A DNA stretch of 64,000 bases from an uncultured bacterium (GTDB lineage Bacteria; Actinomycetota; Acidimicrobiia; Spongiisociales; UBA4744), in contig CAWHCO010000005.1 in NCBI GenBank assembly GCA_963827865.1, positions 43,068-107,067 of the forward strand. The letters run 5' to 3'. Below, piece after piece: positions 41,127 to 64,000 of this stretch. The stretch's first letter is position 1; every line of letters begins with the position of its first letter. A model generated the notes under the pieces. The model did not search any database. It was not told where the DNA came from and saw only the letters and a program-made list of their open reading frames with translations. The position numbers were made by a program, and so were the translations under genes.

Positions 41127-41792
41127 ATGGACATCGATGCGATCCTCGGGCAGTGCGAATCCGCGCTTGAAGAGAAGGGCCAGGTCGACATCGGTGCGTT
41201 GGGCTTCTGGAAGGCGGTAGGGGCACTCAAGCGAGACCAGCAGCTGGTGGCGCGCTATGGAAGTCGTGTCGCGGCAATCGACGAGGACGCGTTCTCTCGA
41301 TGGGCCGGTGTTCGGCTCCCGATCGTGGTCGGTATCGGCGGGATGCTGCTGCTGACCGTCGCTGGACTCGTGGCCGTCTCGATCGCCTACTACGTCGACG
41401 CACCGTGGAACGGTATCTGGGTGTTGGTCGGCACAGGGCTTCTCCTGGCCTCGACGCACACCCTCGCGCACTACATCGTCGGTCGGACGGTCGGGATCCG
41501 ATTCACCCACTGGTTCATCGGACCAAACCCCCAACCGGGCGTCAAGATCGACTACGCTACCTACCTCTCCACGCCACCACGTGCGCGGGCGTGGATGCAC
41601 GCATCGGGGGCGCTGGCCACGAAACTGGTCCCGTTTCTCAACATAGGGGCCGCGTGGGGTTCCCACTCTCCTGCGTGGACCACATGGGTACTTCTCCTTC
41701 TCGGCGCCGTGATGGTCACGACCGACGTCTTCCTGTCTACGAAGCAGTCGGATTGGAAGAAGTTCCGTAGAGAGATGCGCTACACCTCCTAG
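41127..41792 (+). CDS. Hypothetical multi-pass membrane protein
   Basis: 221 aa. A soluble N-terminal 60 aa is followed by 4-5 hydrophobic helices. It contains HTLAHYIVG. No family recognised. Confidence 0.5.
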   Translation: MDIDAILGQCESALEEKGQVDIGALGFWKAVGALKRDQQLVARYGSRVAAIDEDAFSRWAGVRLPIVVGIGGMLLLTVAGLVAVSIAYYVDAPWNGIWVLVGTGLLLASTHTLAHYIVGRTVGIRFTHWFIGPNPQPGVKIDYATYLSTPPRARAWMHASGALATKLVPFLNIGAAWGSHSPAWTTWVLLLLGAVMVTTDVFLSTKQSDWKKFRREMRYTS

Positions 41793-48660: not shown

Positions 48661-48773
48661 TGACACTCTCCTTTCGAGGAACGGTCCAAGCCTATCGCTT
48701 CCCACACCCCGCACCGCCGTTTGGGATTGCGGATCCGCCGTGGCCCGTCCCGACCCGGTAGGCTTGCCCGAAC
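48661..48773. promoter_or_regulatory. Divergent control region between the carbamoyltransferase operon and the ABC importer operon
   Basis: 113-bp gap flanked by two outward-facing starts. It contains the 10-bp perfect palindrome GCGGATCCGC (48729-48738) and a CCGCCGT direct repeat (48715-48721, 48736-48742). Confidence 0.3.
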
Positions 48774-49901
48774 GTGGAGGGTAGGAAGCGGACGAACCTG
48801 AGGCTCCTGTCGCTCGCCGGGAGCCTCTTCCCTGTGATTGCTGTCCTCGCCGCGCTCCTGGTCGGCGCTTTCATGCTGCTCATCCTGGGAGCAGATCCCC
48901 TCAAGGGTTTCGGCGCCATGATCGACGGAGCTTTCGGTGGGGTCCGCCAACTCTCGGATACCGCAGCGAAGGCGGTCCCGCTGCTCCTCGTCGGTGTCGG
49001 TATCACGATCGCGTTCCGGGCGAACGTGATCAACATCGGCGGCGAGGGCCAGATCGTTCTCGGCGCACTCTTCTCGACAGGAGTCGCACTCCTCTTGCCG
49101 AACCTGCCAGGTTGGCTGCTGTTGCCGGGCGTGTTGATCGCAGGCTTCGTGGGCGGTGCGCTGTGGGGAGCGATCCCAGGCGCGTTGAAGGCCTACTTCA
49201 ACGTGAACGAGATCCTCAGCACGATCATGCTCAACATCGTCGCCGTGCAGATCATGAACTTCCTCCTCCAGGGACCTTGGATGGACCCGGTGGAGCTTCG
49301 ACGCGGCAGCCGCATCCCACAGACCACCCGGCTCCCGCATCAGGCCGACCTCCCGCTGTTGATCAGGAACTCCCGTCTCAACATCGGACTCATCATCGCG
49401 ATCGTGGCGGCGGTCATCGTCTACGTCTTCCTTTGGCGTATGACCGAAGGCTTTCGGATTCGGGCCGTCGGCTTCAACCCGTTCGCATCGCGATACGCAG
49501 GCATGCAGGTACAGCATCGGGTCGTGCTCGCGCTCACACTATCCGGCGCGTTGTGTGGTCTCGCCGGTGCGATTCTCGTGTTCGGGAGTGAGGCACACCG
49601 TTTCGTGACAGACGGTTCGGCCACGGGATTCACGGGCAGCGCCGGCTTCAACGGAATCGTCGCCGCCCTCTTCGGAGGTCTCCATCCCGTCGGCACGATC
49701 CCCGCATCGCTTCTGTTCGGTGCCCTCCTGGTTGGGGCGAACAAGCTCCAGCGGGTCGTCCAGGTGCCGGCCGCCCTGATCGTGGCACTCAACGGCCTCA
49801 TCGTGGTGTTCGTTGTCAGCGCGGCAATCTGGAAACGGCGTCTCACACACCGAATTCAGTTGATCACCTCTCGGGCAAACGAGACAAGGGACGAGCCATG
49901 A
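48774..49901 (+). CDS. ABC transporter permease (BMP/nucleoside-type system)
   Basis: 375 aa polytopic membrane protein with the pattern of the sugar/nucleoside ABC permease family (NIGGEGQ, GFNGIVAALFG). Confidence 0.85.
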   Translation: MEGRKRTNLRLLSLAGSLFPVIAVLAALLVGAFMLLILGADPLKGFGAMIDGAFGGVRQLSDTAAKAVPLLLVGVGITIAFRANVINIGGEGQIVLGALFSTGVALLLPNLPGWLLLPGVLIAGFVGGALWGAIPGALKAYFNVNEILSTIMLNIVAVQIMNFLLQGPWMDPVELRRGSRIPQTTRLPHQADLPLLIRNSRLNIGLIIAIVAAVIVYVFLWRMTEGFRIRAVGFNPFASRYAGMQVQHRVVLALTLSGALCGLAGAILVFGSEAHRFVTDGSATGFTGSAGFNGIVAALFGGLHPVGTIPASLLFGALLVGANKLQRVVQVPAALIVALNGLIVVFVVSAAIWKRRLTHRIQLITSRANETRDEP

Positions 49902-50830
49902 GTGAGTTCTTCTCGGCTGCGGCGCTCGTCACCACCATCGGAGCAGGCATTCGGTACGCGACCTCGTACCTGTATGCGGCGCTCGGCGAGACGTTCGGCC
50001 AGCGCAGTGGCGTGCTGAACCTCGGCGTTGACGGAATCATGCTCCTCGGAGCCTTCGGCGCCTACTACGTGGTCCTCGAGACCGGCAACTTGTGGCTGGC
50101 CCTTTTCATCGCTGCCGTCATCGGGCTGGTGATGGGACTCGCCATGGCATTCGCGAGCGTCACCTTGCAGGCGGAGCAAGGCATCAGCGGCATCGGTTTC
50201 TACCTCTTCGGCCTGGGTATGAGCGACCTCCTGTTTCAGAAACTCGTCGGTACACCGCGGCCTATCAGCGGATTCCCAGACGTCCACATCCCGTGGCTCA
50301 GTGACATCCCGGTCGTCGGTCCCCTCATCTTCTCCCACAGCCTGATCGTGTACGGAGCATTCCTGCTGGTCCCGATCGGAACGTTCGTCCTCAATCGCAC
50401 CACGATCGGGCTGAAGATCCGATCGGCCGGAGAGAACCCGGCCGCCGTCGACACGCTCGGAGTCTCGGTCGCAAGAGTCCGCTATGGAACGGTCATGTTC
50501 GGGAGCATGCTGGCAGGTATCGGGGGCGCCGCCCTCACGACGGAACTCGGCATCTTCCAGCAGAACCTCACCGCCGGCCAAGGCTTCATCGCCGTCGCCC
50601 TCGTCTACTTCGGAGCTTGGAGACCGGTGGGCGTGATGTACGGGGCGCTTCTGTACGGCCTCGTCGCGTCGATCGTCTCTCAGCTGAAGACCCTCGGGAT
50701 CATCCCGCGCTCGGTGTCGGACCTCGCGTCGATGCTTCCGGCCGTGATCACGATCCTCGCGCTCGTCGTCGTCGTTCAGCGGGAACGGCAGCCGGCGGCA
50801 CTCACAAAACCATACCAACGAGGGGGCTAG
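49898..50830 (+). CDS. ABC transporter permease (BMP/nucleoside-type system)
   Basis: 310 aa with an ATGA overlap with the preceding permease. LNLGVDGIMLLGAF, IRSAGENPAAVDTLGVSV. Confidence 0.85.
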   Translation: MSEFFSAAALVTTIGAGIRYATSYLYAALGETFGQRSGVLNLGVDGIMLLGAFGAYYVVLETGNLWLALFIAAVIGLVMGLAMAFASVTLQAEQGISGIGFYLFGLGMSDLLFQKLVGTPRPISGFPDVHIPWLSDIPVVGPLIFSHSLIVYGAFLLVPIGTFVLNRTTIGLKIRSAGENPAAVDTLGVSVARVRYGTVMFGSMLAGIGGAALTTELGIFQQNLTAGQGFIAVALVYFGAWRPVGVMYGALLYGLVASIVSQLKTLGIIPRSVSDLASMLPAVITILALVVVVQRERQPAALTKPYQRGG

Positions 50831-50847
50831 CCCCCGGAAGGAGCAAC

Positions 50848-51876
50848 ATGAGACGACTCACCGTGACCGGCATCGTGGTGCTGGTGTTCGCGCTGGTTGC
50901 CGCCGCCTGCGGTGGCGGAGCTACAACCACGACCGCGGCACCGGGCACGACCACACCACCGACCGAGCCACTGAAGGTGGCGATGGTCGCCCCGAGCGCG
51001 GTCAACGACCTCGCGTTCAGCCAGAGCATGTACGACGCCCTGCTGGCAGTACAGGAGGAGATGGGTGGCGAGTCGGCGATGCAGATCGCATACTCGGACA
51101 ATCTGTTCGTCGTCGACGACGCCGCTGCAGCGATCCGTGACTACGCCAATGAGGGATACGACTTGGTGATCGCCCATGGTTCCCAATTCGGCTCGTCCCT
51201 CCAGGAGATCGCACCCGACTACCCGGACACCGCATTCGCGTGGGGAACCGCAGGTGACACGTTCGGCCTCGCGAACGTGTTCGCCTACGAGGCGGCCTCT
51301 GAGGAAGGCGGGTACGTCGAAGGTGTGATGGCCGCGGCGCTCTCCACGTCGGGCGTGCTCGGTGTTATCGGCCCCATCGAGGTCGGTGACGCAGCCCGCT
51401 ATGTCAACGGGTTCGTCGCCGGCGCGACGGCCCAGAACCCGGCGATCGACGTGAAGGTGAACTACACCGGTTCGTTCAGCGACGTTGCCCTTGCGGCGAC
51501 GGCTGCGAATACCGAAATCGCGGCGAGCGCCGACGTGTTGACCGGCACGGCCCAGATGGTCACCGGCGCCGTGGGTGTCGCCAAGGACGCCGGCGTTCCG
51601 TGGTTCGGTACGCAGGCGGACCAGACACAGCTCGCCCCGTCGATCGTTGTCGCGTCGCAGGTGTACCACTGGGAAGTGGTCGTCAAGCAGATCATCGACC
51701 TGATGAACCAAGGCACGATGGGTGATCAGTCCTTCGTGATCAATCTCTCCAACGGTGGTGAGGCGATCGCGTACAACCCCGGCTACTCACTGCCGGACGA
51801 TGTAAAGCAGCTGGCCGAAGACACCGTCAAGGGAATCTCCGACGGCTCGATCAACCCGCCACGACCAGGCTCGTAA
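50848..51876 (+). CDS. BMP-family ABC substrate-binding lipoprotein (purine nucleoside receptor-like)
   Basis: ATG at 50848 behind GGAAGGAG. Signal peptide with lipobox LVAAAC, a Thr/Pro linker, then the BMP/PnrA-like pattern (VAMVAPSAVNDLAFSQS, IAHGSQFG). Confidence 0.85.
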   Translation: MRRLTVTGIVVLVFALVAAACGGGATTTTAAPGTTTPPTEPLKVAMVAPSAVNDLAFSQSMYDALLAVQEEMGGESAMQIAYSDNLFVVDDAAAAIRDYANEGYDLVIAHGSQFGSSLQEIAPDYPDTAFAWGTAGDTFGLANVFAYEAASEEGGYVEGVMAAALSTSGVLGVIGPIEVGDAARYVNGFVAGATAQNPAIDVKVNYTGSFSDVALAATAANTEIAASADVLTGTAQMVTGAVGVAKDAGVPWFGTQADQTQLAPSIVVASQVYHWEVVVKQIIDLMNQGTMGDQSFVINLSNGGEAIAYNPGYSLPDDVKQLAEDTVKGISDGSINPPRPGS

Positions 51877-51886
51877 GGAGACGACG

Positions 51887-53458
51887 ATGCACCCCCAGGG
51901 AACCGACTCCACGTCCGTTGGCATCGATCTCGAGATGCGCGGCATCGTGAAGCGGTTCCCCGGGGTGCTCGCCAATGACCACGTCGATTTCGACGTCCGC
52001 CGTGGAGAGGTCCACACACTCCTCGGAGAGAACGGAGCCGGCAAGTCCACCTTGATGAAGATCCTGTACGGGCTCCAACAGCCCGATGACGGCGAGATAT
52101 ACATCGACGGCAGGCCGGTCGTGATCTCCTCTCCCAGCGACGCGATCGACCATGGCATCGGCATGATCCACCAGCACTTCATGCTCGTCGAAACCATCAC
52201 GGTCGCCGAGAACGTCGCTCTGGGTCTGAAGTCCTCTCGGGGACCGCTCCTCGAACTCGACGTCGTCTCGAAGCGCATCGAGGAGCTATCCAAGGCGTAC
52301 GGCATCAAGGTCGATCCGAGAGCGTATGTGTGGCAGCTCTCGGTCGGTGAGCAGCAGCGGGTGGAGATCATCAAAGCCCTCTATCGCAACGTCTCGCTGC
52401 TCGCCCTCGATGAACCCACCGCGGTGCTGACCCCGCAGGAGGTCGACGATCTGTTCGTGACGCTCAGGCGGATGGCGGCCGAAGGTCATCCCCTGATCTT
52501 CATCTCTCACAAGCTCCACGAAGTGCTGGACATCAGTGATCGGATCACCGTGCTTCGCAACGGCCGCAGGATCGGCACAGTCCCCAAGGAGGGAGCCACA
52601 AAGGCAAGCCTCGCGTCGATGATGGTCGGCCGCGAAATGTTGCTCGAACGTGAACACAAGCCCGCCGAGATCGGCGCCCCCCGACTCCAGGTGCAAGGCC
52701 TGAGAGCCAAGAACGATCGGGGACTCGACGCGTTGGATGGCGTCGACCTCGAGGTCAGGTCAGGTGAGATCCTCGCGATCGCGGGCGTTTCGGGCAACGG
52801 ACAGCAGGAACTCGCCCAGGTGATCGCCGGGCTGCGACCGGCGACCGAAGGAAAAGTACTCCTCGACGGCGTCGACGTGACCACGTGGAAGACACGAGAC
52901 CGTCGGCGTGTGGGCCTCGCCTACATCCCAGAGAAGCGCATGCGCGACGGCGCCGTCCAGCAGTTCACCGTCGCCGAGAACCTGATGTTGCACGACTACG
53001 ACAAGCTCCCGTTCGCGAAGCGGAGTTTCCTCGACTTCGCGGCGATCGAGGAACACTGCGACGAGCTGATCGAGGCTTTCAACGTGAAGACGCCCTCACA
53101 GAAAACACTGCTGAGCGCCTTGTCGGGCGGCAACATCCAGAAGGCGATCCTCGCCCGGGAGCTGTCAGGAAACCCGAAGGTGCTCATCGCAGCACAACCG
53201 ACACGTGGTGTCGACATCGGAGCCACCGAGTACATCCATCAACGGCTCCTCGACCAACGGTTCATCCACGAGAAGCTCCTCGATCAACGCAAGGCCGGCA
53301 CCGCAACCTTGCTCATTTCCGAGGATCTCGACGAGATCCTGGTTCTCGCCGATCGAATCGCGGTCATGTACGAGGGCCGGATCATGGGCATCGTCGACAG
53401 CGACGATGCCACAGTCGAACAACTCGGCCTGATGATGGCAGGCGTGGCAGAGGATTGA
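51887..53458 (+). CDS. ABC transporter ATP-binding protein, duplicated ATPase domains
   Basis: 523 aa. Walker [10 protein letters not shown] and GVSGNGQQE; signature [11 protein letters not shown] and [11 protein letters not shown]. Confidence 0.9.
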
Positions 53459-53479
53459 GCAGCCGTCGGCTGCTCAATC
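53453..53479. terminator. Perfect 12-bp stem hairpin spanning the ABC ATPase stop codon
   Basis: GATTGAGCAGCC gtc GGCTGCTCAATC. The stop TGA is at 53456-53458. Confidence 0.55.
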
Positions 53480-53480
53480 C

Positions 53481-53572
53481 GTACCTCGTATGTACCTCGT
53501 ACCGGTACGGCCCGCCCCGCGGTCTGGAAACGCGTTTGTTCGAGTACGAGGTACAAGGTACAAGGTACAAGG
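53481..53572. repeat. GTAC-heptad inverted-repeat element, copy B
   Basis: The left arm is GTACCTC GTAT GTACCTC GTACCG GTAC. The right arm is GTACGAG GTACAAG GTACAAG GTACAAG G. It lies between the convergent ABC ATPase and YgfK-like genes. Confidence 0.7.
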
Positions 53573-53602
53573 CCCCGATGTCTCGTGCCGGTCCCTTTCG
53601 AC

Positions 53603-56600
53603 CTAGCTGGCGGCCACAGGCAAGTAGGGCATCGAGCCTCGCAAGCCCTGCATGATGGCATACATGGTTGCAGCCGCCTCGAGCCGCAGGACCGCACCAT
53701 CTTTACCCGATGCGTCGATGACGGTGAACTCGTCGGGATCGACGTGCACCGTTCCCAATGGGTTCTCGTAGGTGAGCGAGCCGTTCAGCTCTATGCGGTG
53801 TGTCTCCCCTGCGAACCGCCCTTCCATGGCACCGTTGTGCAGCATGAATGCGTTGTCGGGCTCGGAGAGGAAGTCATCTCTGTTGAGGTAGAGGCGCGGC
53901 TTGTCACGGTAGGGCTCGCCTGCCGTCGGGCAGAACGTCACGCAGTTCCCGCACTCGTTGCAGAAGTCGGTGAGCACGGCGATCTGGTACCCCTGTTCGA
54001 CCGAGAACGACTCACCCGGTGCGACGCTTGCCCCTTCACCTCCGATTGTGACAACGGGCAGATCGAACGACACCGGCTCCATCGTGTAGGTCATCAGCGC
54101 CATGTTCGGGCACACGCCGACGCAGATGCTGCAGTAGAGGTCACAGTCGAGACAACGTGACGCCTCGTTCTGAGCTTCTTCCGCCGTGTAGGGGAACGTC
54201 CCCATCCGGAAGTTCTTGCGCTCGCCGACCGGAACGTGTGTGATGGGTACCCGATACTCCCGGTGTGCCTTGCGCACCTGGATGTCCGCCACCGAGAACA
54301 CCGGCAGATTCCTCTCTGCCGGCACCACGCTGCCACCCTCGCGCTCGATGATCGTCGCCGCGACCACCTTGGCGTCACCTGCCGCTTTCACGATCGATGC
54401 CGGCCCCGGGGCGGCGACGTCACCCGCCGCGAACACACCGGGGATCGACGTCTCCATCGTGGCCGGATCGACGTCGAGGTATCCGCCCCGGGTCAACGCG
54501 GGCAGCTCCTCGTCGAAGAAGTCGATCAGCGCATGCTGGCTGATCGCGAGAATCATCGTGTCGAACGGAAGCTCGAACTCGGACCCTTCGATCGTGTGCG
54601 GCACCTTGCGACCGGACGCGTCCCTGTCGCCCCGGTATTCGTTGCGGACGCACACCAACCCGGCAAGAGCTTCGTCTTCGATGTGCAACGCGACGGGGCT
54701 GGTCAGCTCCTCGACCCGGATGCCCTCTTCGAGCAGCAGATGAACCTCTTCCCTGTCGGCCGGCATCTGATCGATCGTGCGCCGGTACACCACGGTCACG
54801 TGATCGGTTCCGAGACGCCATGAGGTTCGTGCGCAGTCCATCGCCGTGTCACCGGCCCCGATGACCGCCACCCGGTCTCCGATCGGCACCGGGTGGCCCT
54901 CCCTTGCCGCCCTGAGGAAGTGGAGGGCGTCCATGACACCATCGGCTTCCTCACCCTCGAGGCCGAGGCGTTTGCCGATCTGGGCGCCGGCTGCAACCAG
55001 CACGTAGCGGTAGCCCTGCTTCCGTAGGTCCGAAACGGTGAAGTCTCGTCCCGCGGTCTGGCCGAATCTGGTCTCGACGCCGAGATCGTTGACGACCTTC
55101 ACATCCTTGTCGATCTCGATCTGGGGAAGCCGGTACTCGGGAATCGCGCCCGACACCATGCCGCCAGGGTAGGGGTGCTGTTCGAACATCGTGACTTCGA
55201 ACCCTTCCCCGGCGAGCACTTCCGCAGCTGACATGCCCGCGGGCCCCGCTCCGATGATCGCCACCTTGATCCCCGTCGCCGGCTTCGGGACCGTTGCAGC
55301 GGGTTCGGTCTCGAGCGTCATGACGAAGCGCTTCATATCCCGGATCGCGAGTGGCTCGTCGTAGTGGGTTCTGATGCAGGTGTGCTCGCACAGGTGGTCA
55401 CAGACCTGGCCGAGAATCGTCGGGATCGGGTTGTCCTGGCGGGTGACCGCAACGGCCGTCGCCCAGTCGCCATCTCGGACGGCACGCATGTACTCGGGGA
55501 CTCGCTGGTTCACCGGGCACTCGTCCTCGCATGGGGCCGCGATGCAGTCGAACAGGTCGAGGGGGCGCACGGTCTTGGAACGGCTCCTGAAGAACGAGCC
55601 TTTCTTCAGATCCCATGCTTGACGCGCCTCGGCCGAGTAGGCGCGCAGGTTGACCCGCGCGGCGGCCGTGACCAGCGCACGACGAGTCGCCGGGTTCCGG
55701 GGCAGAACCCCGCCCTCATTCAGACTCGCGACCTCTTCGGCCGCCTGCTCGATACCGAGGCTCACTGCGAATACTCCCGTGAGTTCACCGGGGCGTTCCA
55801 GGGCGGTGCGCACGATCAACTCGTCGAGGTTCTCCGCACCCGCACGGTCGAGCGCAGTATCGGTGGTCTCGAAGTACTGCAGCATCCGCATGTAGCCGCC
55901 GGACCTGAGCAGGTCGCTGCACACTGTGATCGTGCTCATTCCCGAGGCGAGCAGCGACGGAGCATTGAAGGCGTCCGCTCCCCCCGCGAAGGACATGAGC
56001 AGGTCCCCGGCGAAGTCCTCGTTGATCCGGTTGGCGACGTTGGTGGTGATCGCGTGCAGGGCTCGCCCGGACATGTACATGGTCTCGTCGGTGAACACGT
56101 CGCGGAAGTTCTCCACCTCGAGGGTGTTGGTGAGCTTGACGCCGAAGGTGAGGCCTTCACCGGCTCCGACGGCTTTGAGCCTGCGCAGCATCGGGACGGC
56201 ATCTGCGTATTGCAGGTCGTGTCCGAAGGCGGCGTCGGGAACCGGCACATCCCTGTAGCCGAGGTCGGACAGGATGGAACGCACACCGTCCGGGCCGAGC
56301 AGGGTCGGATTCAGCTTGACACTCGTGTGCAGATGTCGCTGCTTCATGAGGTACTGGCTGATCGTCTCGATCTCGTCCGGGGGACAACCGTGCATCGTGG
56401 AGAGGGTGATTGTGTCCGACAGCCGTCTCGGAATGTGGATTGAGCGCACCTCCGGGTAGTCCGCCGCGACGATCTCGACCATCTCACCCAGGCGTTCGGA
56501 GGCGTCGTCCATCCGTTCGAAGTACCACTGGACGTTCGGCTGCTGGATGCCTGCATAGTCGTACCCGACACTCATGTTGAAGATCAGGCCGGGATCATCG

Positions 56601-57025
56601 CCGGGGAAGCCGAGTCGCCGGTGGAGGGCATGGATGAGCACCCACGCTCGCAGATACTCCTCGAACGACTCGTGTACCTTCAACTCCTGGGACCACTCGA
56701 CGTTGTAGCCCTCGTCTTGGCAGTCGATACATGGTTTGGGCACGTCGAGCTCATCGAGCGTCTGGACGGTCTTCAGCTCGATGAACCGTGCACCGTGGAG
56801 CCACGCGACGACGATGTTCTGTGCCATCTGTGTGTGCGGTCCTGCCGCGACGCCGAATGGCGTGTCGAGCGCCTGACCGTAGACGTTGGTTCGGTAGCGG
56901 TCCGTCGGGTCGGGAACGAAGAAGGCGGAACGCGGGAACCCGAAGATCGTGTCCTCGGTCTCGAGTTCGGAGAACACCCATCTGCTGAGCGCGCGGGCGC
57001 TGATCGGGTGGAATCGATCGGACAT
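53603..57025 (-). CDS. YgfK-like multidomain oxidoreductase (DHOD/DPD-like barrel + GltD-like FAD/NAD(P) domain + 2x[4Fe-4S] ferredoxin)
   Basis: ATG at 57025 behind AGGAGTG; the track gives 57121. 1140 aa. N-terminus IFGFPRSAFF...GVAAGPHTQMAQNIVVAWLHGARFIELKTVQ. VAIIGAGPAGMSAA..., VAVIGAGDTAMDCART, CLDCDLYCSICVGVCP, CNECGNCVTFCP. Confidence 0.8.
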   Translation of the reverse strand: MSDRFHPISARALSRWVFSELETEDTIFGFPRSAFFVPDPTDRYRTNVYGQALDTPFGVAAGPHTQMAQNIVVAWLHGARFIELKTVQTLDELDVPKPCIDCQDEGYNVEWSQELKVHESFEEYLRAWVLIHALHRRLGFPGDDPGLIFNMSVGYDYAGIQQPNVQWYFERMDDASERLGEMVEIVAADYPEVRSIHIPRRLSDTITLSTMHGCPPDEIETISQYLMKQRHLHTSVKLNPTLLGPDGVRSILSDLGYRDVPVPDAAFGHDLQYADAVPMLRRLKAVGAGEGLTFGVKLTNTLEVENFRDVFTDETMYMSGRALHAITTNVANRINEDFAGDLLMSFAGGADAFNAPSLLASGMSTITVCSDLLRSGGYMRMLQYFETTDTALDRAGAENLDELIVRTALERPGELTGVFAVSLGIEQAAEEVASLNEGGVLPRNPATRRALVTAAARVNLRAYSAEARQAWDLKKGSFFRSRSKTVRPLDLFDCIAAPCEDECPVNQRVPEYMRAVRDGDWATAVAVTRQDNPIPTILGQVCDHLCEHTCIRTHYDEPLAIRDMKRFVMTLETEPAATVPKPATGIKVAIIGAGPAGMSAAEVLAGEGFEVTMFEQHPYPGGMVSGAIPEYRLPQIEIDKDVKVVNDLGVETRFGQTAGRDFTVSDLRKQGYRYVLVAAGAQIGKRLGLEGEEADGVMDALHFLRAAREGHPVPIGDRVAVIGAGDTAMDCARTSWRLGTDHVTVVYRRTIDQMPADREEVHLLLEEGIRVEELTSPVALHIEDEALAGLVCVRNEYRGDRDASGRKVPHTIEGSEFELPFDTMILAISQHALIDFFDEELPALTRGGYLDVDPATMETSIPGVFAAGDVAAPGPASIVKAAGDAKVVAATIIEREGGSVVPAERNLPVFSVADIQVRKAHREYRVPITHVPVGERKNFRMGTFPYTAEEAQNEASRCLDCDLYCSICVGVCPNMALMTYTMEPVSFDLPVVTIGGEGASVAPGESFSVEQGYQIAVLTDFCNECGNCVTFCPTAGEPYRDKPRLYLNRDDFLSEPDNAFMLHNGAMEGRFAGETHRIELNGSLTYENPLGTVHVDPDEFTVIDASGKDGAVLRLEAAATMYAIMQGLRGSMPYLPVAAS

Positions 57026-57038
57026 ACTCACACTCCTA

Positions 57039-58061
57039 TCACAGCCGGGCGTGGAGTCGCTTCGCCTGCTCTCGAGCTCTCGCCCGGATCTCCTTCGCGT
57101 CGACCTTCGTCGGGCTGCCATTCTCGAACACGACCTCGCCGTCCACCACGACCTTCAGAGGTCGGACACCTGGGGTGAACGCGAGGTGCCACGGGTCCAT
57201 CGGTTCGTAGGACCACGTCACTTCGTCCTCGAGCGCCTCCGGCGCGAGGTTCCATCCTTCCTCGAGCCACTTCCACGCTGTCTCAGGCGATGCGGTCACG
57301 TCGACGGACCGATGCATGACGTAGGCGAGGCGGAACGACTCGATCATCGCGGCGCCGATCCCGTCCGTGCCGAGCGCAACGGGATTGTCGAATCGCACCG
57401 GGTTCGCGTACCCCACGGCGTTGTTCAGGTTGGACCGAGGGTTGTGCACGATCGTGCCATGGAGTTCGTGGTCGGTCGGCAGATGCACGGCGTGGATCAG
57501 CAGCCAGTCGTCGGTTGCGAGCCCTTGGAGCTTGAACGTCGCGTCCCTATCGACTTCGCCTTCTGCGACATGGACGTGGACACCGACTCTCAGATCGTTG
57601 GCGAGTCCGGCGGCGGCCTCCAGGCTTTCATCGGTGCAGGTGAACGCTGCGTGGATACCGACGAGCCCGTTGCCACCTGCCTTGATGAAGCGTTCGTTCT
57701 CTGCGAGTCCCCTCAGGGCCCCTTCATGCCCGTGCCTGTCGGTGATCCCGTAGGCGCAGACGACCCGTACGCCGACCTCGGCACACGCGTCTGCGATCAC
57801 CGACAGACTGCCTTCGATCGCGTTCGGCGACTCGTTGTGATCGATGATGACGGTGGTTCCCTGTTCGAGCGCCTCGAGTGCGCCGAGTTTGGCGGACCAC
57901 TCGATCATCTCGAGGTCGAGGGCGGTGTCGAGCCTCCACCAGACCTGCTCGAGGATCTCGAGGAAGTTGGCTGGGGTGGCCGGCGGTGCGGGCATGCCTC
58001 GTGCGAGCGTCGAATACAGGTGGTGGTGTGCGCACACCATGCCAGGGGTGGTCGATGCCAT
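57039..58061 (-). CDS. SsnA-like amidohydrolase, short form lacking the usual N-terminal segment
   Basis: 340 aa. It starts MASTTPGMVCAHHHLYSTLARGMPAPPATPANFLEILEQVWWRLDTAL. GGGAGGAGG lies 5 nt upstream of the ATG at 58061, and only 19 nt separate it from the upstream stop. Confidence 0.7.
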   Translation of the reverse strand: MASTTPGMVCAHHHLYSTLARGMPAPPATPANFLEILEQVWWRLDTALDLEMIEWSAKLGALEALEQGTTVIIDHNESPNAIEGSLSVIADACAEVGVRVVCAYGITDRHGHEGALRGLAENERFIKAGGNGLVGIHAAFTCTDESLEAAAGLANDLRVGVHVHVAEGEVDRDATFKLQGLATDDWLLIHAVHLPTDHELHGTIVHNPRSNLNNAVGYANPVRFDNPVALGTDGIGAAMIESFRLAYVMHRSVDVTASPETAWKWLEEGWNLAPEALEDEVTWSYEPMDPWHLAFTPGVRPLKVVVDGEVVFENGSPTKVDAKEIRARAREQAKRLHARL

Positions 58062-58080
58062 AGAACCTCCTCCCGCAAAC

Positions 58081-60630
58081 CTACCCGCTGCGTGCCAGCG
58101 GGAGCGTGTTCCTCCAGGCGCCGTCTCGGTCGTGCATTGCTGCGGCGACCGCCGGCGCGGTCGGGACCAGCCCGATCTCGCCGACGCCCTTCACGCCGTA
58201 CGGGGCGTTCGGTTGGGGCACCTCGATGATGATGACGTCAACGTTCGGCATGTCCTTGGCACGCAGAATGCCGAGGCTGCGGAAGGTCATGTTGATAGGC
58301 CGTCCTGAGTCGTCGACGGGGAAGTCCTCGGAGAGGGCGTACCCGAGGCCCATGTGGACAGCACCTTCGATCTGTCCTTCGACGAGGGTCGGATTGACCG
58401 CCTTTCCCACGTCGTGCGCTGCGACGACCCGCTCGATCTCGCCCGTTTCGCGATCCATGATGACCACCTGCGCGGCGTATCCGAACGCGGAGTGAATGGT
58501 CGGATGCTCGACACCGGATTCGAGTGAGTTCGTCCAGTCAATGACGTACTGGCCGTGGTGGTCGACTCCCACCGTCCTACCTGCCGCGATCGCGTTCCGG
58601 CAGGCGTCTTGGATCGCTCCCGCGCCGAGCAGCGTGCCCCGCGAACCGGTCGTCTGTCCGTCGCCTAGCTCCCTCGTGGTGTCGACGATCACCCGGACGT
58701 TCGCCGTGTCGACGCCGAGTTCCTCGGCCGCGACCTGCTGGGCGACCGTGTGGATGCCTTGGCCCATCTCGGTCCAGCAGTGGCGCACTTCCACGGTGCC
58801 GTCCTCTTCGAATCGAACAACAGCCCTCGACACCTCCTTGTACCCATTGCCGAGGCCGGTGTTCTTCAGCGCGAGGCCGAGCCCCACCGCCTTGCCTTCC
58901 GATCGGGCGTTGTGGTAGACGTCTTTGACGGCATCGAGGCACTCCGAAGCCCCTCGGCAGCCATCGTCCATGATCTGACCGGGGCCCCATTCGACGCCGG
59001 GGGTGATGACGTTGCGCGCTCTGATCTCCCAGCCGGAGATGCCGACGACTTCCGCCAGCCGATCGAGGGCCCCTTCCATGGCGAACTGTGCCTGGTTGGC
59101 ACCGAACCCTCGAAACGCTCCGCACACCGGGTTGTTGGTTCGCACCGCGATCGACTCGACGTCGACGTTTGGGACGACGTACGGACCGGTGGCGTGCCCT
59201 GCAGCGCGTTCGAGCACCTTCATACCGACGGAGGCATATGGGCCGGAGTCGCCGACGAGACGCGCCTTCACCGCGGTCAGCCGACCCTCCTCGTCGCATC
59301 CCACCTCGTACTCCAAGCGGATGGGGTGGCGTTTGGCGTGCATCAGGAGCGATTGCTCCCTGGTGAGTGTGCACTTGACGGGCCTTTGGAGGAGCCAGGC
59401 GGCGAGCGCGGTCTGGCCCTGGTTAGACATGTCCTCCTTGCCTCCGAACGCCCCTCCGTTCGAGACGAGCTCCACCGTGACTGTGTCGCTCGATACGGCG
59501 AGCAGTGCGGCGATCTGATCGCGGTCGTCCCACACCCCTTGGCCGCCCGAGTAGACGTGGAGCTTGCCGCCCGGCATAGGCACGGCAAGGGTCGATTCAG
59601 GCTCCAGGAACGCGTGTTCGACCCGTTGGGTGGTGAACACCTCGTGGATCGTGTGTGCACTCGATTCGAGCACTGAGTCCACATGGCCGCGCTGGTAGGT
59701 AGAGCGCGACAAGACGTTGCCATCGAGTCCCCACACGGCATCCTCGTCCGATGCGAGCGCCTTCTCAGCGTTCGTGAACGGAGCAAGCGGGCGGTACTCG
59801 GCGGTGACCAGCTCGGCGGCACGGCGGGCCGTCTCCCGATCCTCGGCGACGACGACCGCAAGCACATCACCGAGATAGGACGTGCGGCCCCCTTCCGGGA
59901 TGAAGACGGGCCAGTCCTTGTCGATCAACCCGACGCGCAGCGTTCCCGGCAGATCCTTGGCTGTGAACACGCCGACGACACCATCGGCTTCTTCCGCGAT
60001 GCTGGTGTCGATGCGAAGGACGTCTGCACGAGCATGATCGGCGAGCCGGAGCGCTGCATGAAGCATCCCATCGACGCGCAGATCATCGATGAACCCCCTG
60101 CTCCCGAGAGCCAGTTCTCTCGCCTCGTACTTGGCGCCGGTCGAGCCGACCCCACCAGGCGGCGAGACTTCGATCGGGCCGTCGTGGGCGACTGCCTCGA
60201 TGGCTTCGAAGACCTTGAGGTAGCCGGTGCAACGGCAGAGGTTGGCCCCGAGGTGGCGTTGGAGGTCGCCGCGGGTGAGGTCCGCACCCTTCTTGTCGAT
60301 GAGGGCCTTCGATCGCATGATGATGCCCGGAGTGCAGAACCCGCACTGGGTAGCACCGTATGCAGCGAACGCGTCCGCGAAACGATCACGCTCCCAATCG
60401 GACAGCCCTTCGAGGGTGACGATGCTCGTTCCTTCGGCCTTGTCGACGTCCATCTGGCACGACACGCGAGCTTTGCCATCGACGAGGATCGTGCACGCAC
60501 CGCACTGACCCGAAGGCGAGCACCCGTCCTTGGGTGAGGTGACATCGAGTTCTTCGCGGAGTGCGGCCAGGAGATGCGGGTGGCCGTCCTGCACCTCGAC
60601 TGGAGTGCCGTTCAGCTCGAAGCGAGTCAT
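58081..60630 (-). CDS. Fused (2Fe-2S)-binding + molybdopterin-binding xanthine dehydrogenase family protein (XdhD-like architecture)
   Basis: About 850 aa. The N-terminal 150 aa are an FeS domain (CSPSGQCGACTILVDG, CGFCTPG, NLCRCTGY), fused directly to the hammerhead and Mo domains (NGGAFGGKED, GFGANQAQFAME). The start is either the ATG at 60630 or the GTG at 60639. Confidence 0.85.
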   Translation of the reverse strand: MTRFELNGTPVEVQDGHPHLLAALREELDVTSPKDGCSPSGQCGACTILVDGKARVSCQMDVDKAEGTSIVTLEGLSDWERDRFADAFAAYGATQCGFCTPGIIMRSKALIDKKGADLTRGDLQRHLGANLCRCTGYLKVFEAIEAVAHDGPIEVSPPGGVGSTGAKYEARELALGSRGFIDDLRVDGMLHAALRLADHARADVLRIDTSIAEEADGVVGVFTAKDLPGTLRVGLIDKDWPVFIPEGGRTSYLGDVLAVVVAEDRETARRAAELVTAEYRPLAPFTNAEKALASDEDAVWGLDGNVLSRSTYQRGHVDSVLESSAHTIHEVFTTQRVEHAFLEPESTLAVPMPGGKLHVYSGGQGVWDDRDQIAALLAVSSDTVTVELVSNGGAFGGKEDMSNQGQTALAAWLLQRPVKCTLTREQSLLMHAKRHPIRLEYEVGCDEEGRLTAVKARLVGDSGPYASVGMKVLERAAGHATGPYVVPNVDVESIAVRTNNPVCGAFRGFGANQAQFAMEGALDRLAEVVGISGWEIRARNVITPGVEWGPGQIMDDGCRGASECLDAVKDVYHNARSEGKAVGLGLALKNTGLGNGYKEVSRAVVRFEEDGTVEVRHCWTEMGQGIHTVAQQVAAEELGVDTANVRVIVDTTRELGDGQTTGSRGTLLGAGAIQDACRNAIAAGRTVGVDHHGQYVIDWTNSLESGVEHPTIHSAFGYAAQVVIMDRETGEIERVVAAHDVGKAVNPTLVEGQIEGAVHMGLGYALSEDFPVDDSGRPINMTFRSLGILRAKDMPNVDVIIIEVPQPNAPYGVKGVGEIGLVPTAPAVAAAMHDRDGAWRNTLPLARSG

Positions 60631-60722
60631 CGGCCACACCTTACGCGCCCGAGGGCGGTTGTGCCCCCGCTACCCGGCTCTCGGAGAGACGACACCTCGG
60701 GAGCGCTAGCATCTGATCTCGG

Positions 60723-61538
60723 ATGATCACCGAGTACGTGCGCTCCGGCTCCGTCGAAGAAGCCTTCGGGCTGCTGACATCGCTCGGATCCAGGGCGCGC
60801 CTGATGGGCGGAGGAACCGACCTCTCCCTCCACCCCCCTGCAGAGGTCGACACGCTCATCGACCTCTCAGGAGCGTCGCTCGACGGCATCACTCGTGACG
60901 ATGGAACCATCTCGATCGGCGCCACGGTCACGTTGACCGAGATGCTCGAGTATGAACCGCTCGGCAGCGTCTGGTCGGGTGTTGTGCACACAATGCTCCG
61001 ACGGGTTGCGTCTCCCCTCCACCGCAACGCTGCTTCGATCGGTGGCCATCTGGCGAGGGGACGCCTGTCGGACGTGGTGCCCGTGATGCTCGCGATCGAC
61101 GCGTCGGTGAAGTTCTATGACGGTGCAGCGAAACAGATGCCACTCGGGGAGTTCTATTCGACGAGACGCAACAGGCAGCCGTTGGTCGTGACCGGTGTGG
61201 AGATCCCCGTCGATGGTGGCAGGGCCGCATTCCGGAAGTTCGCCCGTACCACGTATGACCTGGCGATCCTCAATGTGGCGTGTGGAGTCCGCTTCGAAGG
61301 CGCCGTTGTTTCGTCCGCGAGGATCGTTGTCGGCGAACGACCGAGCCTCGCTGTAGATCTCGGTGACGCGTCGCAGGTCCTGGTCGGCCATCCCTTCGAT
61401 GAGGATTCGATAGCGGAGGCCGCCCGTGTCGCGAGGGACACGGTCGACGTTCGCTCCGATCCCAGGGGAAGCGCCGAGTATCGCCGGCACCTCACCGAGG
61501 TGCTCGTTCGTCGTTGTCTCTCGGAGGTTGGCCCATGA
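60723..61538 (+). CDS. FAD-binding subunit of molybdenum hydroxylase (YgfM/CoxM-like)
   Basis: 271 aa. MGGGTDLSLH, ASIGGHLARG, and the C-terminal CO dehydrogenase flavoprotein-like region (DPRGSAEYRRHL). Confidence 0.8.
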   Translation: MITEYVRSGSVEEAFGLLTSLGSRARLMGGGTDLSLHPPAEVDTLIDLSGASLDGITRDDGTISIGATVTLTEMLEYEPLGSVWSGVVHTMLRRVASPLHRNAASIGGHLARGRLSDVVPVMLAIDASVKFYDGAAKQMPLGEFYSTRRNRQPLVVTGVEIPVDGGRAAFRKFARTTYDLAILNVACGVRFEGAVVSSARIVVGERPSLAVDLGDASQVLVGHPFDEDSIAEAARVARDTVDVRSDPRGSAEYRRHLTEVLVRRCLSEVGP

Positions 61539-62002
61539 ACCTCACGGTGAATGGTGTCGGGTTCGACGTGGAGGTCACACCTTCCGAGAGTCTGCTGGAC
61601 CTGCTGCGACGGCTCGGATTCAAGGGTGTGAAGAACGGCTGCGACAACGGAGATTGCGGGGCGTGCGCCGTGCTGATCGACGGCAGGGCTGTCACGTCGT
61701 GCGACTACCCGGCGCCGGCCGCGGCCAACACCAACATCCTGACCGTGGAAGGTCTCGAAGCCGAGGGTGAGCTGCACCCGATCCAAGCTGCGTTCCTCGA
61801 CACAGGCGGGGTCCAGTGCGGCTTCTGCACCCCGGGGATGCTGATCAGCGCCTACGAGCTGCTGAGTCGGGTCTCTGAGCCTTCAGATGACGAAATACGC
61901 GAAGCGCTGCGCGGAAATCTGTGCCGCTGCACGGGCTACGTGAAACCGGTGGAGGCCGTCAGGATCGCTGCTGCGAGGATGCGGGAGGCGGACGGTGGCT
62001 GA
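61535..62002 (+). CDS. (2Fe-2S)-binding subunit of xanthine dehydrogenase family enzyme (set 3)
   Basis: The ATG at 61535 forms an ATGA overlap with the FAD subunit stop. MNLTVNGVGFDVEV, CDNGDCGACAVLIDG, CGFCTPG, NLCRCTGY. Confidence 0.9.
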   Translation: MNLTVNGVGFDVEVTPSESLLDLLRRLGFKGVKNGCDNGDCGACAVLIDGRAVTSCDYPAPAAANTNILTVEGLEAEGELHPIQAAFLDTGGVQCGFCTPGMLISAYELLSRVSEPSDDEIREALRGNLCRCTGYVKPVEAVRIAAARMREADGG

Positions 62003-64000
62003 TCGGTTCGTCGTCGTCGGTCAGAGCGAGCGTCGTGTGGATGGGCGTGCCCTCGTGACGGGCAAACCGGTGTTTGCCGGCGACCTCGACCTTCCCGGCA
62101 TGCTGCATCTCGCGATGCTCGGTTCGCCGCACCCGCATGCACGTATCACCTCGATCTCGACGGAGCGGGCGGAGGCACTCGAAGGGGTGGAGCTCGTGCT
62201 GACGCATTTGAATACACCGTCGGTCCGCTACACGACCGCTGGGCAAGGGCATCCGGAGCCGTCTCCATACGATTCGCGGATGTTCGACCCGAAGGTCCGC
62301 TTCGTCGGGGATCGTGTAGCCGTTGTCGCCGCCACGTCGAAGGAGATTGCAGAACGTGCGCTGGAGCTCATCGCGGTCGAGTACGAACCGCTGACGCCCG
62401 TCCTGTCGATCGACGACGCGCTCGCCGACGGGGCGCCGGTCATCCACGACGAGGCGGACGCGTCGGGGATCTGGGACGCCGAACACAACATCGCAGGAGT
62501 GGTCGAGGCCGACGTCGGCGATGTCGATACGGCGATCGAGTCGGCGTTTGCGAGTGTCGAGTTCACGGGAGAGACCCAGTACGCGCAACACGTCCCACTC
62601 GAGCCGCACGTATCGCTGGCCTACCTCGACGACAACGGACGGCTGGTGCTCTACACGAGCACCCAGGTTCCCTTCCACGTGCGTCGGATCATCGCACGCG
62701 TCCTCGACATCCCGGCCGGACAGATCAGGGTCATCAAGCCTCGCATCGGAGGAGGCTTCGGCGTGAAACAGGAGATCCTCATCGAGGACCTCGTCGGACT
62801 CGTCACCTACCGGACCGGTCGGCCGTCCAAGTTCGAGTACACCCGAGCCGAGGAGTTCTTCCAGTCCCGCACCCGGCATCCGATGCGGGTGACGATCCGG
62901 CTGGGAGCCGACAAGGACGGACACCTGACCGCGGTGCACATGGACGCCCTCGAGAACACAGGTGCCTACGGGGCCCACAATCTGACCGTTGTATCCAACG
63001 CCGGCTCGAAGACACTGCCCATGTACAACAAAGCACCGAACGTGCGATTCACGGCCAAGGGCATCTACACCAACATGCCCGTCGGCGGCGCCTACCGGGG
63101 CTACGGTGCGACGCAAGGGATCTTTCCGCTCGAAGTGGGCATCGACATGCTCGCCGAGAAGCTCGGTATCGACGCACTCGAGCTTCGACGTCGCAACCAC
63201 ATCCGCTCCGGCGAGACCAGTCCCATCTTCGAGGAGCTCGGCGAGGGCCGGAAGGGCGTGCCGCAGACGATCGGCAGCTGCGGCCTCGAACGATGCATCG
63301 ACATCGGGGCCGAACGGATCGGCTGGTCGGCCAAGCGCAGCAAGCGCTTCCGTGAGGGGCCCTGGGTGCACGGTGTCGGCATGTCCATCCACATGCAGGG
63401 CTCGGGGATTCCCGCGATCGACATGGCCGCGGCGACCATCAAGATGAACGACGACGGTTCGTTCAACCTGCTGGTCGGCGCGACCGATCTCGGAACGGGC
63501 TCGGACACCGTTCTCGCACAAATGGCCGCCGAAGTCCTCGGCGTCACCCTCGACGACATCATCGTCCTTTCATCCGATACCGACGTGACCCCGTTCGATG
63601 TCGGCGCGTACGCGTCATCGACGACCTACGTGTCAGGCTCGGCGGTGGTGCGGGCCGCCACCGCCGTCAAGTCGCAAATCACCTCCGTCGCAGCGGCCAT
63701 GCTCAGGGTCGACGGTGATGAGCTCCAGGTGGGCGATGGCAGGGTCATAGCGAACGACGGTCGTACCGTCACGCTGGCGGACGTCGCACTACGGTCGCTG
63801 TACGGTGTCGACCAATTCCAGATCGGCTCGACCGCCTCGTTCGTCGGCGACGTCTCTCCCCCACCATTCCTCGCGTCGTTCGCCGAGATCGCAATCGACA
63901 CGGAGACCGGTGAACTGAGGATCGTCGACTACGCCGCTGCGGTGGACTGCGGAACGGCAATCAACCCGCGTCTTGCCGAGGGCCAGGCCGAGGGAGCTCT
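61995..64000 (+). CDS. Xanthine dehydrogenase family molybdopterin-binding subunit (set 3), partial, continues beyond right edge
   Basis: Absent from the track because it is open at the window end. GTG at 61995 behind GGGAGG reads VADRFVVVGQSERRVDGRALVTGKPVFAGD..., RIGGGFGVKQE, YRGYGATQG, GATDLGTGSDT, NPRLAEGQAEGA. Confidence 0.85.
   Translation, partial: MADRFVVVGQSERRVDGRALVTGKPVFAGDLDLPGMLHLAMLGSPHPHARITSISTERAEALEGVELVLTHLNTPSVRYTTAGQGHPEPSPYDSRMFDPKVRFVGDRVAVVAATSKEIAERALELIAVEYEPLTPVLSIDDALADGAPVIHDEADASGIWDAEHNIAGVVEADVGDVDTAIESAFASVEFTGETQYAQHVPLEPHVSLAYLDDNGRLVLYTSTQVPFHVRRIIARVLDIPAGQIRVIKPRIGGGFGVKQEILIEDLVGLVTYRTGRPSKFEYTRAEEFFQSRTRHPMRVTIRLGADKDGHLTAVHMDALENTGAYGAHNLTVVSNAGSKTLPMYNKAPNVRFTAKGIYTNMPVGGAYRGYGATQGIFPLEVGIDMLAEKLGIDALELRRRNHIRSGETSPIFEELGEGRKGVPQTIGSCGLERCIDIGAERIGWSAKRSKRFREGPWVHGVGMSIHMQGSGIPAIDMAAATIKMNDDGSFNLLVGATDLGTGSDTVLAQMAAEVLGVTLDDIIVLSSDTDVTPFDVGAYASSTTYVSGSAVVRAATAVKSQITSVAAAMLRVDGDELQVGDGRVIANDGRTVTLADVALRSLYGVDQFQIGSTASFVGDVSPPPFLASFAEIAIDTETGELRIVDYAAAVDCGTAINPRLAEGQAEGA

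Follow-up and report, generated by a model that had tools for sequence, protein, structure and literature searches.

The window analysed here is a 64-kb stretch of DNA from an uncultured bacterium of the Acidimicrobiia (contig CAWHCO010000005.1), and the subject is a trio of consecutive minus-strand genes, which encode an iron-sulfur/molybdenum (FeS-Mo) fusion hydroxylase, a short-form amidohydrolase of the SsnA type and a homologue of the 2,8-dioxopurine reductase YgfK. Open reading frame (ORF) listing and translation gave the neighbours 58081-60639, 57039-58061 and 53603-57121. With supported starts the three proteins have 849, 340 and 1140 amino acids (aa), respectively (Table 1). The FeS-Mo start at 60630 is based on public gene calls together with the sequence, the SsnA start is preceded by the Shine-Dalgarno sequence GGGAGGAGG, 7 nucleotides (nt) ahead of the ATG, and the YgfK start by the Shine-Dalgarno sequence TAGGAG ahead of its ATG. 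The resulting spacers are 19 nt between the FeS-Mo gene and ssnA and 13 nt between ssnA and ygfK, exactly as had been described in an earlier reading of the letters alone (the sequence-only reading). The G+C content at third codon positions is 0.80-0.82 in all three genes alike, and a promoter/terminator scan of positions 53300-61000 revealed no signal above shuffled expectation and none internal to the trio. The three genes form an operon, and a chance arrangement is excluded, because the same order recurs in dozens of independent genomes.

Judged by its sequence, the 1140-aa protein is a YgfK equivalog. It scored 908.7 bits on the equivalog model TIGR03315, which is above the cut-off of 835.3, and its full-length identity is 33% with E. 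coli YgfK and 36% with the E. faecalis protein. Pfam matches were found for Fer4_20 (residues 493-573) and Pyr_redox_2 (residues 587-884), followed by C-terminal ferredoxin-type Cys motifs. The protein has the expected architecture, i.e., a barrel-like N-terminal domain, a 4Fe-4S part of the dihydropyrimidine dehydrogenase type, a two-dinucleotide-binding domain and a C-terminal pair of ferredoxin-type clusters. In an alignment with the YgfK proteins of E. coli, E. faecalis and Collinsella all Cys motifs were kept, and lineage-specific insertions were present. The sequence-only reading had named the protein YgfK on the basis of an N-terminal motif; this motif is indeed present in E. coli YgfK and conserved in the window protein, and the name holds. 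Its domain descriptions of all three proteins agree with the Pfam and hidden Markov model (HMM) matches, and ygfK, ssnA, ygfM and xdhD are contiguous in E. coli K-12, as it had stated. When the window was compared with the E. coli urate locus, YgfK and SsnA were reciprocal best hits in both directions. NADPH-dependent 2,8-dioxopurine reduction has been shown for the YgfK proteins of E. coli and C. sporogenes only (PMC12507026; bioRxiv 10.1101/2025.04.24.650524).

The second protein of the trio was also correctly placed near SsnA, which is its closest characterised relative, but it belongs to a truncated subfamily below the SsnA cut-offs. It is 32% identical to E. coli SsnA, with residues 6-340 aligned to residues 56-438, and its score on NF005540 was 263 versus a cut-off of 444, with the HMM match spanning model positions 58-349 only. 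A complete two-domain amidohydrolase of about 440 aa with an N-terminal beta-sandwich part is thus not encoded. The metal-binding and catalytic motifs are retained, namely HxH, HVAE (HxxE), HAVH (the strand-6 His) and GTDG (the strand-8 Asp), and the two motifs quoted in the sequence-only reading, CAHHHLYSTLARGM and FLEILEQVWWRLD, are present. Three further motifs, WWRLDxALD, IDHxxSP and VHNPRSNxNNxVGY, are common to the short SsnA and E. coli SsnA and were found neither in GuaD nor in the local 8-oxoguanine-deaminase homologue. An AlphaFold2 model of the short SsnA had a pLDDT of 76 and a pTM of 0.81. Against cog0402 amidohydrolases it gave TMq values of 0.75-0.78 and TMt values of about 0.6, a pattern in keeping with an intact barrel whose accessory domain is reduced. 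A PDB sequence search revealed no close structure (best E value 8e-8).

The length of the short SsnA is conserved. More than 120 clusters at 90% identity consist almost entirely of proteins of exactly 340 aa, and, thus, the 340-aa form is no artefact. A truncated pseudogene or a mis-called start was considered and rejected, based on an upstream stop codon, the Shine-Dalgarno sequence and the retention of 340 aa in hundreds of genomes. Among the representatives at 50% identity there are also forms of about 400 aa and canonical SsnA proteins of 430-450 aa at 40-50% identity; two apparent long fusions among these representatives (P0143 and P0198) read like frameshifted junk and were discarded. 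On motifs and alignment, the short SsnA is a conserved subfamily that has SsnA as its best family, and it is probably a ring-opening hydrolase acting on reduced 2,8-dioxopurine.

A separate observation concerns a farmland metagenome contig from ENA (L092). Its positions 10001-13510 contain one ORF of 1169 aa, in which an FeS-Mo protein of the XdhAC type is fused to a short SsnA that begins at HxH, and a CysK-like gene for a pyridoxal phosphate (PLP) enzyme follows directly. The fusion is a singleton cluster on one contig and may be a sequencing artefact; as a singleton it gives only weak Rosetta-stone support.

The first gene of the trio encodes a protein with the Pfam domains Fer2, Fer2_2, Ald_Xan_dh_C (the hammerhead), MoCoBD_1 from residue 308 and MoCoBD_2. 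The sequence-only reading had regarded it as XdhD-like, which was not borne out: on the XdhD model TIGR03313 it reached 202.7 bits, far below the cut-off of 1101.9, it is about equidistant to E. coli XdhA (27.7%) and XdhD (26.2%), and the XdhD-specific active-site insertion with Glu606 is missing. On TIGR03311, the "selenium-dependent xanthine dehydrogenase" model, it passed marginally, with 835.8 versus 830.45 bits. Over 99% of its length it shares 40.5% identity with E. faecalis Xdh, and its identity to the Xdh of Collinsella aerofaciens is 38.5%. In both organisms this TIGR03311-type Xdh is the sole Mo hydroxylase of a canonical ssnA-ygfK urate cluster, which in E. faecalis has the order ssnA-ygfK-hydA-dpaL-ygeY-ygeW-arcC, together with Xdh. 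On these comparisons the FeS-Mo fusion is of the enterococcal/clostridial XdhAC type and no XdhD orthologue. An alignment showed, in addition, that the N-terminal "Fe-S" region of E. coli XdhD (L001, 25317-28187) is without the first [2Fe-2S] Cys ligands, which the window protein has.

The active-site residues of the FeS-Mo fusion were numbered after rat/bovine xanthine oxidoreductase and aligned with the E. faecalis and Collinsella enzymes; these homologues, from plasmid-classified records, were the stand-ins for the C. sporogenes enzyme DOPDH in the comparisons. The equivalents of E802, R880, F914 and E1261 are kept, and the position of A1078 is occupied by Thr. E802, R880, E1261 and A1078T are common to the fusion and the enterococcal and Collinsella enzymes. 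Position F1009 is the non-aromatic Asn in the fusion and Val in the other two enzymes. For C. sporogenes DOPDH, F1009V and A1078T/S were described as specific changes, and its Mo domain comprises residues 307-839 (bioRxiv 10.1101/2025.04.24.650524). A PDB sequence search retrieved no DOPDH structure. The FeS-Mo fusion is probably a DOPDH-like oxidoreductase that interconverts urate and 2,8-dioxopurine.

The true homologue of E. coli XdhD is the Mo subunit of the neighbouring split enzyme, which lies partly outside the interval that the sequence-only reading had described. It is encoded in a three-subunit FAD-FeS-Mo operon transcribed divergently from the trio. The window end truncates the Mo subunit, which shares 42% identity with E. 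coli XdhD (E value 1e-169) versus 33.7% with XdhA and contains the XdhD-specific insertion with Glu606, a residue that Li et al. proposed to orient urate (PMC12507026). The FAD subunit is 27.8% identical to E. coli YgfM and 23.7% identical to XdhB. Both known types of urate-reducing Mo enzymes thus appear, from these likenesses, to be encoded side by side. At two related loci, L018 and L078, SsnA-YgfK has the XdhD type beside it in place of the FeS-Mo fusion, which suggests that either Mo enzyme can serve as the supplier of 2,8-dioxopurine.

The distribution of the module was analyzed by a scan of one genome per species, which yielded 500 confirmed relatives; the best 80 of the 500 were kept for locus counts. 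The closest proteins are encoded in metagenome-assembled genomes of Acidimicrobiia, and the short SsnA is present in at least 500 species genomes, mainly of Acidimicrobiia and Chloroflexota. The best 80 loci comprise 38 of Acidimicrobiia, 8 of other Actinomycetota, 25 of Chloroflexota, 7 unclassified and 2 others, which are possibly mis-binned. A full-length ygfK directly follows the short ssnA in about 70 of the 80, and in about 48, most of them with no XdhD-type gene within 10 kb, the FeS-Mo gene immediately precedes ssnA. The trio is apparently native in Acidimicrobiia and widespread there. To call its presence in an actinobacterium unexpected is therefore weakly founded: gut Collinsella carries the cluster, and Li et al. 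listed Actinomycetota and Chloroflexota among the SsnA-bearing phyla (PMC12507026). Recent horizontal transfer of the trio is unsupported in view of the uniformly high, flat GC content of the window (0.62-0.66), the housekeeping flanks and the class-wide conservation. In the searchable literature no paper was found connecting Acidimicrobiia with the 2,8-dioxopurine pathway, and the supplement of Li et al. has no taxon list that places the short-SsnA clade inside or outside their similarity network.

Li et al. also proposed a luciferase-like gene as an F420-dependent reductase and described Chloroflexota as lacking YgfK/UacX (PMC12507026). Five of the Chloroflexota loci carry a luciferase-like gene, and full-length YgfK was found in the same genomes. 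As a side observation, L020, L021, L023, L029, L032, L036, L075 and further Chloroflexota loci have a full-length ygfK (57-61% identity at full coverage) directly after the short ssnA, and in L075 ygfK and the luciferase-like, putative F420 gene occur together.

Table 1. Positions and database matches of the trio and of the genes surrounding it in the window
Feature	Position	Strand	Matches and remarks
YgfK / DOPOR-type NAD(P)H-dependent Fe-S flavoprotein, 1140 aa	53603-57025	-	TIGR03315, Fer4_20, Pyr_redox_2
Short SsnA amidohydrolase, 340 aa	57039-58061	-	Amidohydro_1; SsnA motifs
FeS-Mo fusion molybdenum hydroxylase without FAD domain, 849 aa	58081-60630	-	Pfam, TIGR03311
FAD-binding subunit, YgfM/XdhB-like	60723-61538	+	NCBIfam XdhB, PucC and Se_sel_red_FAD (YgfM family), all below cut-off
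[2Fe-2S] subunit	61514-62002	+	XdhC/PucE-type matches; 155 aa in public contig L002
XdhD-type Mo subunit, cut by window end	61995-64000	+	767 aa, complete in L002
8-Oxoguanine-deaminase-like amidohydrolase	36161-37633	+	NF006055, 677.3 versus 532
PucC/E/D-like three-subunit Mo hydroxylase (FeS and FAD subunits present)	37626-41226	-	TIGR03196
CysK-like fold-type-II PLP enzyme, 489 aa	42947-44416	-	PALP domain
ThrC-like fold-type-II PLP enzyme	~44413-45642	-	PALP domain
Carbamate kinase (YqeA/ArcC)	45639-46592	-	NF009007, 385.8 versus 266; 48% to E. coli YqeA
YgeW-like carbamoyltransferase	46619-47593	-	E. coli YgeW 33.7% (174 bits) versus ArgI 30% (138 bits)
Atypical aspartate carbamoyltransferase (ATCase)-like carbamoyltransferase	47707-48714	-	OTCace_N and OTCace domains; 37% to E. 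coli PyrB
Bmp-family ABC transporter, four genes (two permeases, Bmp binding protein, double ATPase)	48774-53458	+	NCBIfam, Pfam

The urate cluster extends from about 36.2 kb to just beyond the window end, and the first 35 kb contain housekeeping genes. In the public contig L002 a nicotinate phosphoribosyltransferase gene and a two-component system lie beyond the XdhD-type Mo subunit. A scan of the whole window at Rfam gathering thresholds revealed no match to a riboswitch or other RNA. Within the housekeeping part, one ORF of 704 aa (15501-17615, minus strand) matches QueA with residues 1-331 and Tgt with residues 337-693, end to end, and appears to be a queA-tgt gene fusion.

The genes at 36161-41226 represent upstream purine funnelling. 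The Mo subunit of the PucCDE-like enzyme (37626-39836, minus strand) scored 733 on TIGR03196 (pucD), just below the cut-off of 783.65. It has kept the equivalents of E802 and E1261 and has an Asn at R880, and its substrate may be other than xanthine. The sequence-only reading had described the xanthine dehydrogenase (XDH) cluster as aerobic-looking; the surrounding XDH genes showed no feature that is specifically aerobic. A Zn-dependent alcohol dehydrogenase is also encoded in the cluster.

Two carbamoyltransferases lie beside the module in 15-17 of the 80 loci, and the carbamate kinase and the CysK-like enzyme each accompany them in about 16. The YgeW-like protein has the YgeW motifs and lacks the SMG loop of ornithine carbamoyltransferases. 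The ATCase-like protein keeps STRTR, HPTQ and R167, while the ligands of the Asp side chain are altered (R229K, Q231R) and an insertion is present. Seventeen of the 80 loci have its gene in the company of SsnA-YgfK, with at least 66% identity, and in the urate clusters of this clade it keeps its place beside the YgeW-like gene; the protein clears the TIGR00670 PyrB cut-off, and the gene is probably liable to mis-annotation as pyrB. In the PDB, the two PLP enzymes have only threonine synthases and cysteine synthases as relatives, and the CysK-like gene is kept with the module in Acidimicrobiia as well as in Chloroflexota. From their sequence families, the ThrC-like and CysK-like enzymes are candidates for the terminal step from diaminopropionate to pyruvate, in place of YgeX. 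One locus, L078, has the ATCase-like, YgeW-like, carbamate kinase, ThrC-like, CysK-like, SsnA and YgfK genes in one operon. The Bmp transporter recurs beside the trio in many related loci and is, by family membership, likely a purine or nucleoside importer. The closest species representative (L008) has the same cluster order, and only a 3' fragment of the ABC ATPase gene (14513-14962) lies there between ygfK and the carbamoyltransferases; the transporter block was thus gained or lost between close relatives.

With E. coli and E. faecalis proteins as tblastn queries, no match to HyuA/HydA, YgeY, YqeB, YqeC, MocA, XdhC, SelD, SclA or YedF was obtained in the 64-kb window. The selenium-accessory genes selD, yqeB and yqeC, for which the sequence-only reading had advised a search, are therefore not encoded there. 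The sole match to YgeX/DpaL was weak (26-28% identity), and it was to the ThrC-like gene. In the 80 related loci, with flanks of about 10 kb, HyuA/HydA, SelD, MocA, SclA and YedF were not found either (the last three with E. faecalis queries only), YgeY was found in L068 only, and YgeX-like genes in L026, L059 and L065. Ten of the 80 loci (L012, with yqeC only, L019, L033, L038, L046, L052, L053, L056, L063 and L077) have, at a distance of 4-10 kb from the trio, homologues of yqeB and yqeC that share 45-50% and 31-37% identity, respectively, with their E. coli counterparts, and, thus, some relatives carry selenium-cofactor markers. Within reach of the trio no yqeB or yqeC was found in the closest relatives, L008-L011.

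The pathway in question was described in 2025 as anaerobic, mostly gut-associated and enriched in Bacillota. In E. coli, XdhD-YgfM reduces urate to 2,8-dioxopurine, and in C. sporogenes this is done by the selenium-dependent XdhAC (DOPDH). The next reduction, of 2,8-dioxopurine with NAD(P)H, is catalysed by YgfK (DOPOR); ring opening is due to SsnA and, for the second ring, to HyuA, YgeW and carbamate kinase lead to ATP, and YgeY and YgeX lead to pyruvate and ammonia (PMC12507026; bioRxiv 10.1101/2025.04.24.650524). The chemistry that the sequence-only reading had proposed, a Mo-enzyme step or reduction followed by ring hydrolysis, has thus been shown for orthologues in the same two papers.

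Gene identities, synteny and conservation were computed here, and they make it rather probable (about 0.78) that the trio encodes the interconversion of urate and 2,8-dioxopurine, the reduction of 2,8-dioxopurine and ring hydrolysis. The FAD-less FeS-Mo enzyme would interconvert urate and 2,8-dioxopurine at its molybdenum centre, with the electrons passing via two [2Fe-2S] clusters. YgfK would transfer electrons from NAD(P)H via FAD and 4Fe-4S clusters to the FMN site and reduce 2,8-dioxopurine there, and the short SsnA, presumably a mononuclear-metal amidohydrolase, would hydrolyse the reduced ring, whereby the unfavourable YgfK reduction would be pulled forward. The XdhD-type FAD-FeS-Mo enzyme could feed the same route as a second, NAD(P)H-linked urate reductase or as a purine hydroxylase. 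Completion of the pathway would fall to the genes at 42.9-48.7 kb: through the two carbamoyltransferases and the carbamate kinase, the ureido groups would leave as carbamoyl phosphate, with a yield of ATP, and the PLP enzymes, replacing YgeX, would turn the C3 diamine into pyruvate and ammonia. We infer from the orthologues that these divergent proteins would perform the same reactions, and the same applies to the identity of the urate-reducing Mo enzyme and to all downstream roles.

Several points weigh against this assignment. The chemistry is taken from orthologues of E. coli, C. sporogenes and C. difficile, all of which are outside this clade. The short SsnA is only 30-32% identical to characterised or annotated SsnA proteins, reaches 247.8 versus the cut-off of 455.5 on TIGR03314, lacks about 55 N-terminal residues, has four internal deletions and begins 5-10 residues before HxH. 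The FeS-Mo fusion clears TIGR03311 by merely 5 bits, has Asn instead of Val at F1009 and was likened to C. sporogenes DOPDH via the E. faecalis and Collinsella stand-ins and not directly; no electron donor was identified for this FAD-less enzyme. Since no HyuA-type second ring-opening enzyme was found in the window or in the 80 loci, the pathway has an unfilled step; YgeY and YgeX proper are also missing from the window, as are selD, yqeB, yqeC, mocA and xdhC-type genes.

Among the alternatives, the one that survives best, though we regard it as unlikely, is that the roles of the two Mo enzymes are reversed. The FeS-Mo fusion would then produce urate as a conventional xanthine/hypoxanthine dehydrogenase, and urate reduction would fall to the XdhD-type neighbour, as it does to XdhD-YgfM in E. 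coli. This would agree with the NCBIfam name of TIGR03311, xanthine dehydrogenase, and with the complete purine-binding triad E802/R880/E1261 of the FeS-Mo protein; however, the urate clusters of E. faecalis and Collinsella have no Mo hydroxylase other than the TIGR03311 enzyme, which must therefore supply 2,8-dioxopurine there, and the fusion bears A1078T, which was reported for DOPDH. With 42% identity to XdhD, the insertion that carries Glu606 and, for NAD(P)H, a FAD subunit, the neighbour would be well equipped for the reversed role, and it alone accompanies SsnA-YgfK in L018 and L078. On the other side, the FeS-Mo gene directly precedes SsnA-YgfK in more than half of the 80 loci, mostly without an XdhD-type gene nearby, and the PucCDE-like enzyme in the window is already available as a xanthine dehydrogenase.

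It is considerably less probable that the module of short SsnA and YgfK acts on another heterocycle, e.g., another oxopurine, a pteridine or a pyrimidine-like compound, and merely descends from urate enzymes. The truncation of SsnA below the family cut-offs could be read in this way, but its SsnA-specific motifs are kept and YgfK clears an equivalog-level model. The missing HyuA, YgeY and YgeX and the carbamoyltransferase with altered substrate ligands would also be compatible with another substrate, whereas the setting is that of purines: three XDH-family enzymes, a purine deaminase homologue, a Bmp-type transporter, a YgeW-like transferase and a carbamate kinase. The nearby 8-oxoguanine-deaminase-like gene might hint at a different compound, but 8-oxoguanine deamination itself gives urate. 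A selenate-reductase or selenium-metabolism system, which only the legacy names of TIGR03315 and TIGR03314 would indicate, has next to no probability, because selenate was neither needed by nor stimulating for YgfK activity and is not a YgfK substrate (Liu et al., bioRxiv 10.1101/2025.04.24.650524), both 2025 papers place YgfK and SsnA in urate catabolism, and the window contains no selenium genes.

Taken together, the trio is most likely a lineage variant of the known reductive urate (2,8-dioxopurine) pathway and no new kind of system. New are the minimal SsnA, which escapes the curated HMM cut-offs, the presence of both Mo-enzyme types side by side, the loss of HyuA, YgeY and YgeX from the locus, and the addition of an ATCase-like transferase and two other PLP enzymes. 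The variant defines a minimal SsnA catalytic unit and exposes the second ring opening as a step without an enzyme, for which, in the absence of a HyuA/dihydropyrimidinase homologue within 10 kb in any of the 80 genomes, there is no candidate. Tentatively, and with more doubt than confidence, one may imagine that the edition of Acidimicrobiia and Chloroflexota conserves more energy: the 340-aa SsnA may open both rings, as no HyuA-type enzyme is ever nearby, the YgeW-like and the re-tooled ATCase-like enzymes would remove both ureido groups phosphorolytically, which would give up to two carbamoyl phosphates and thus two ATP per urate, and PLP enzymes other than YgeX would finish the pathway. If this were true, the pathway, now presented as a trait of gut anaerobes that depends on selenium, would act as a major sink of purines in soils and sediments. 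In at least 500 species-level genomes of Acidimicrobiia and Chloroflexota, uncultured and recovered from environmental metagenomes, the core module of Mo enzyme, SsnA and YgfK is kept as an operon, and it bears on the annotation of purine and nitrogen turnover in soils and sediments.

The locus can be compared with three known systems. The first is the cluster of E. faecalis, C. sporogenes and Collinsella (xdhAC/xdh-ssnA-ygfK-hyuA-ygeX-ygeY-ygeW-arcC). The window has in common with it the FAD-less FeS-Mo type (40.5% and 38.5%), YgfK (36%), an SsnA homologue, the adjacency of ssnA and ygfK, a YgeW-like carbamoyltransferase (31%) and a carbamate kinase (46%). In contrast to this system, the window SsnA is the 340-aa short form, HyuA/HydA, YgeY, DpaL/YgeX, XdhC, MocA, SelD, SclA, YedF, YqeB and YqeC are missing from the locus, and an ATCase-like transferase, two other PLP enzymes and a Bmp ABC transporter are added. 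The hosts also differ: free-living, high-GC Acidimicrobiia here, gut anaerobes in the case of the enterococcal, clostridial and Collinsella clusters.

The second system is ygfK-ssnA-ygfM-xdhD of E. coli K-12, with which the window shares homologues of YgfK (33%), SsnA (32%), YgeW (34%) and YqeA (48%). As in E. coli, SsnA-YgfK has near it a Mo subunit of the XdhD type (42%, Glu606 insertion included) and a FAD subunit resembling YgfM/XdhB. Unlike in E. coli, the XdhD-type enzyme consists of three polypeptides whose genes diverge from the trio, the trio has a Mo gene of the TIGR03311 type, and hyuA, ygeX, ygeY, yqeB, yqeC and mocA are missing from the window. The third comparison is with PydA/PydB, i.e., dihydropyrimidine dehydrogenase and dihydropyrimidinase, and the analogy with reductive pyrimidine catabolism was also drawn by Li et al. 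(PMC12507026). In both cases a flavin/Fe-S reductase dearomatises a ring, which is then opened by an amidohydrolase; in contrast to PydA/PydB, the substrate would be bicyclic and derived from a purine, YgfK carries an additional domain at its N-terminus, and SsnA falls within the deaminase-like cog0402 branch of amidohydrolases.

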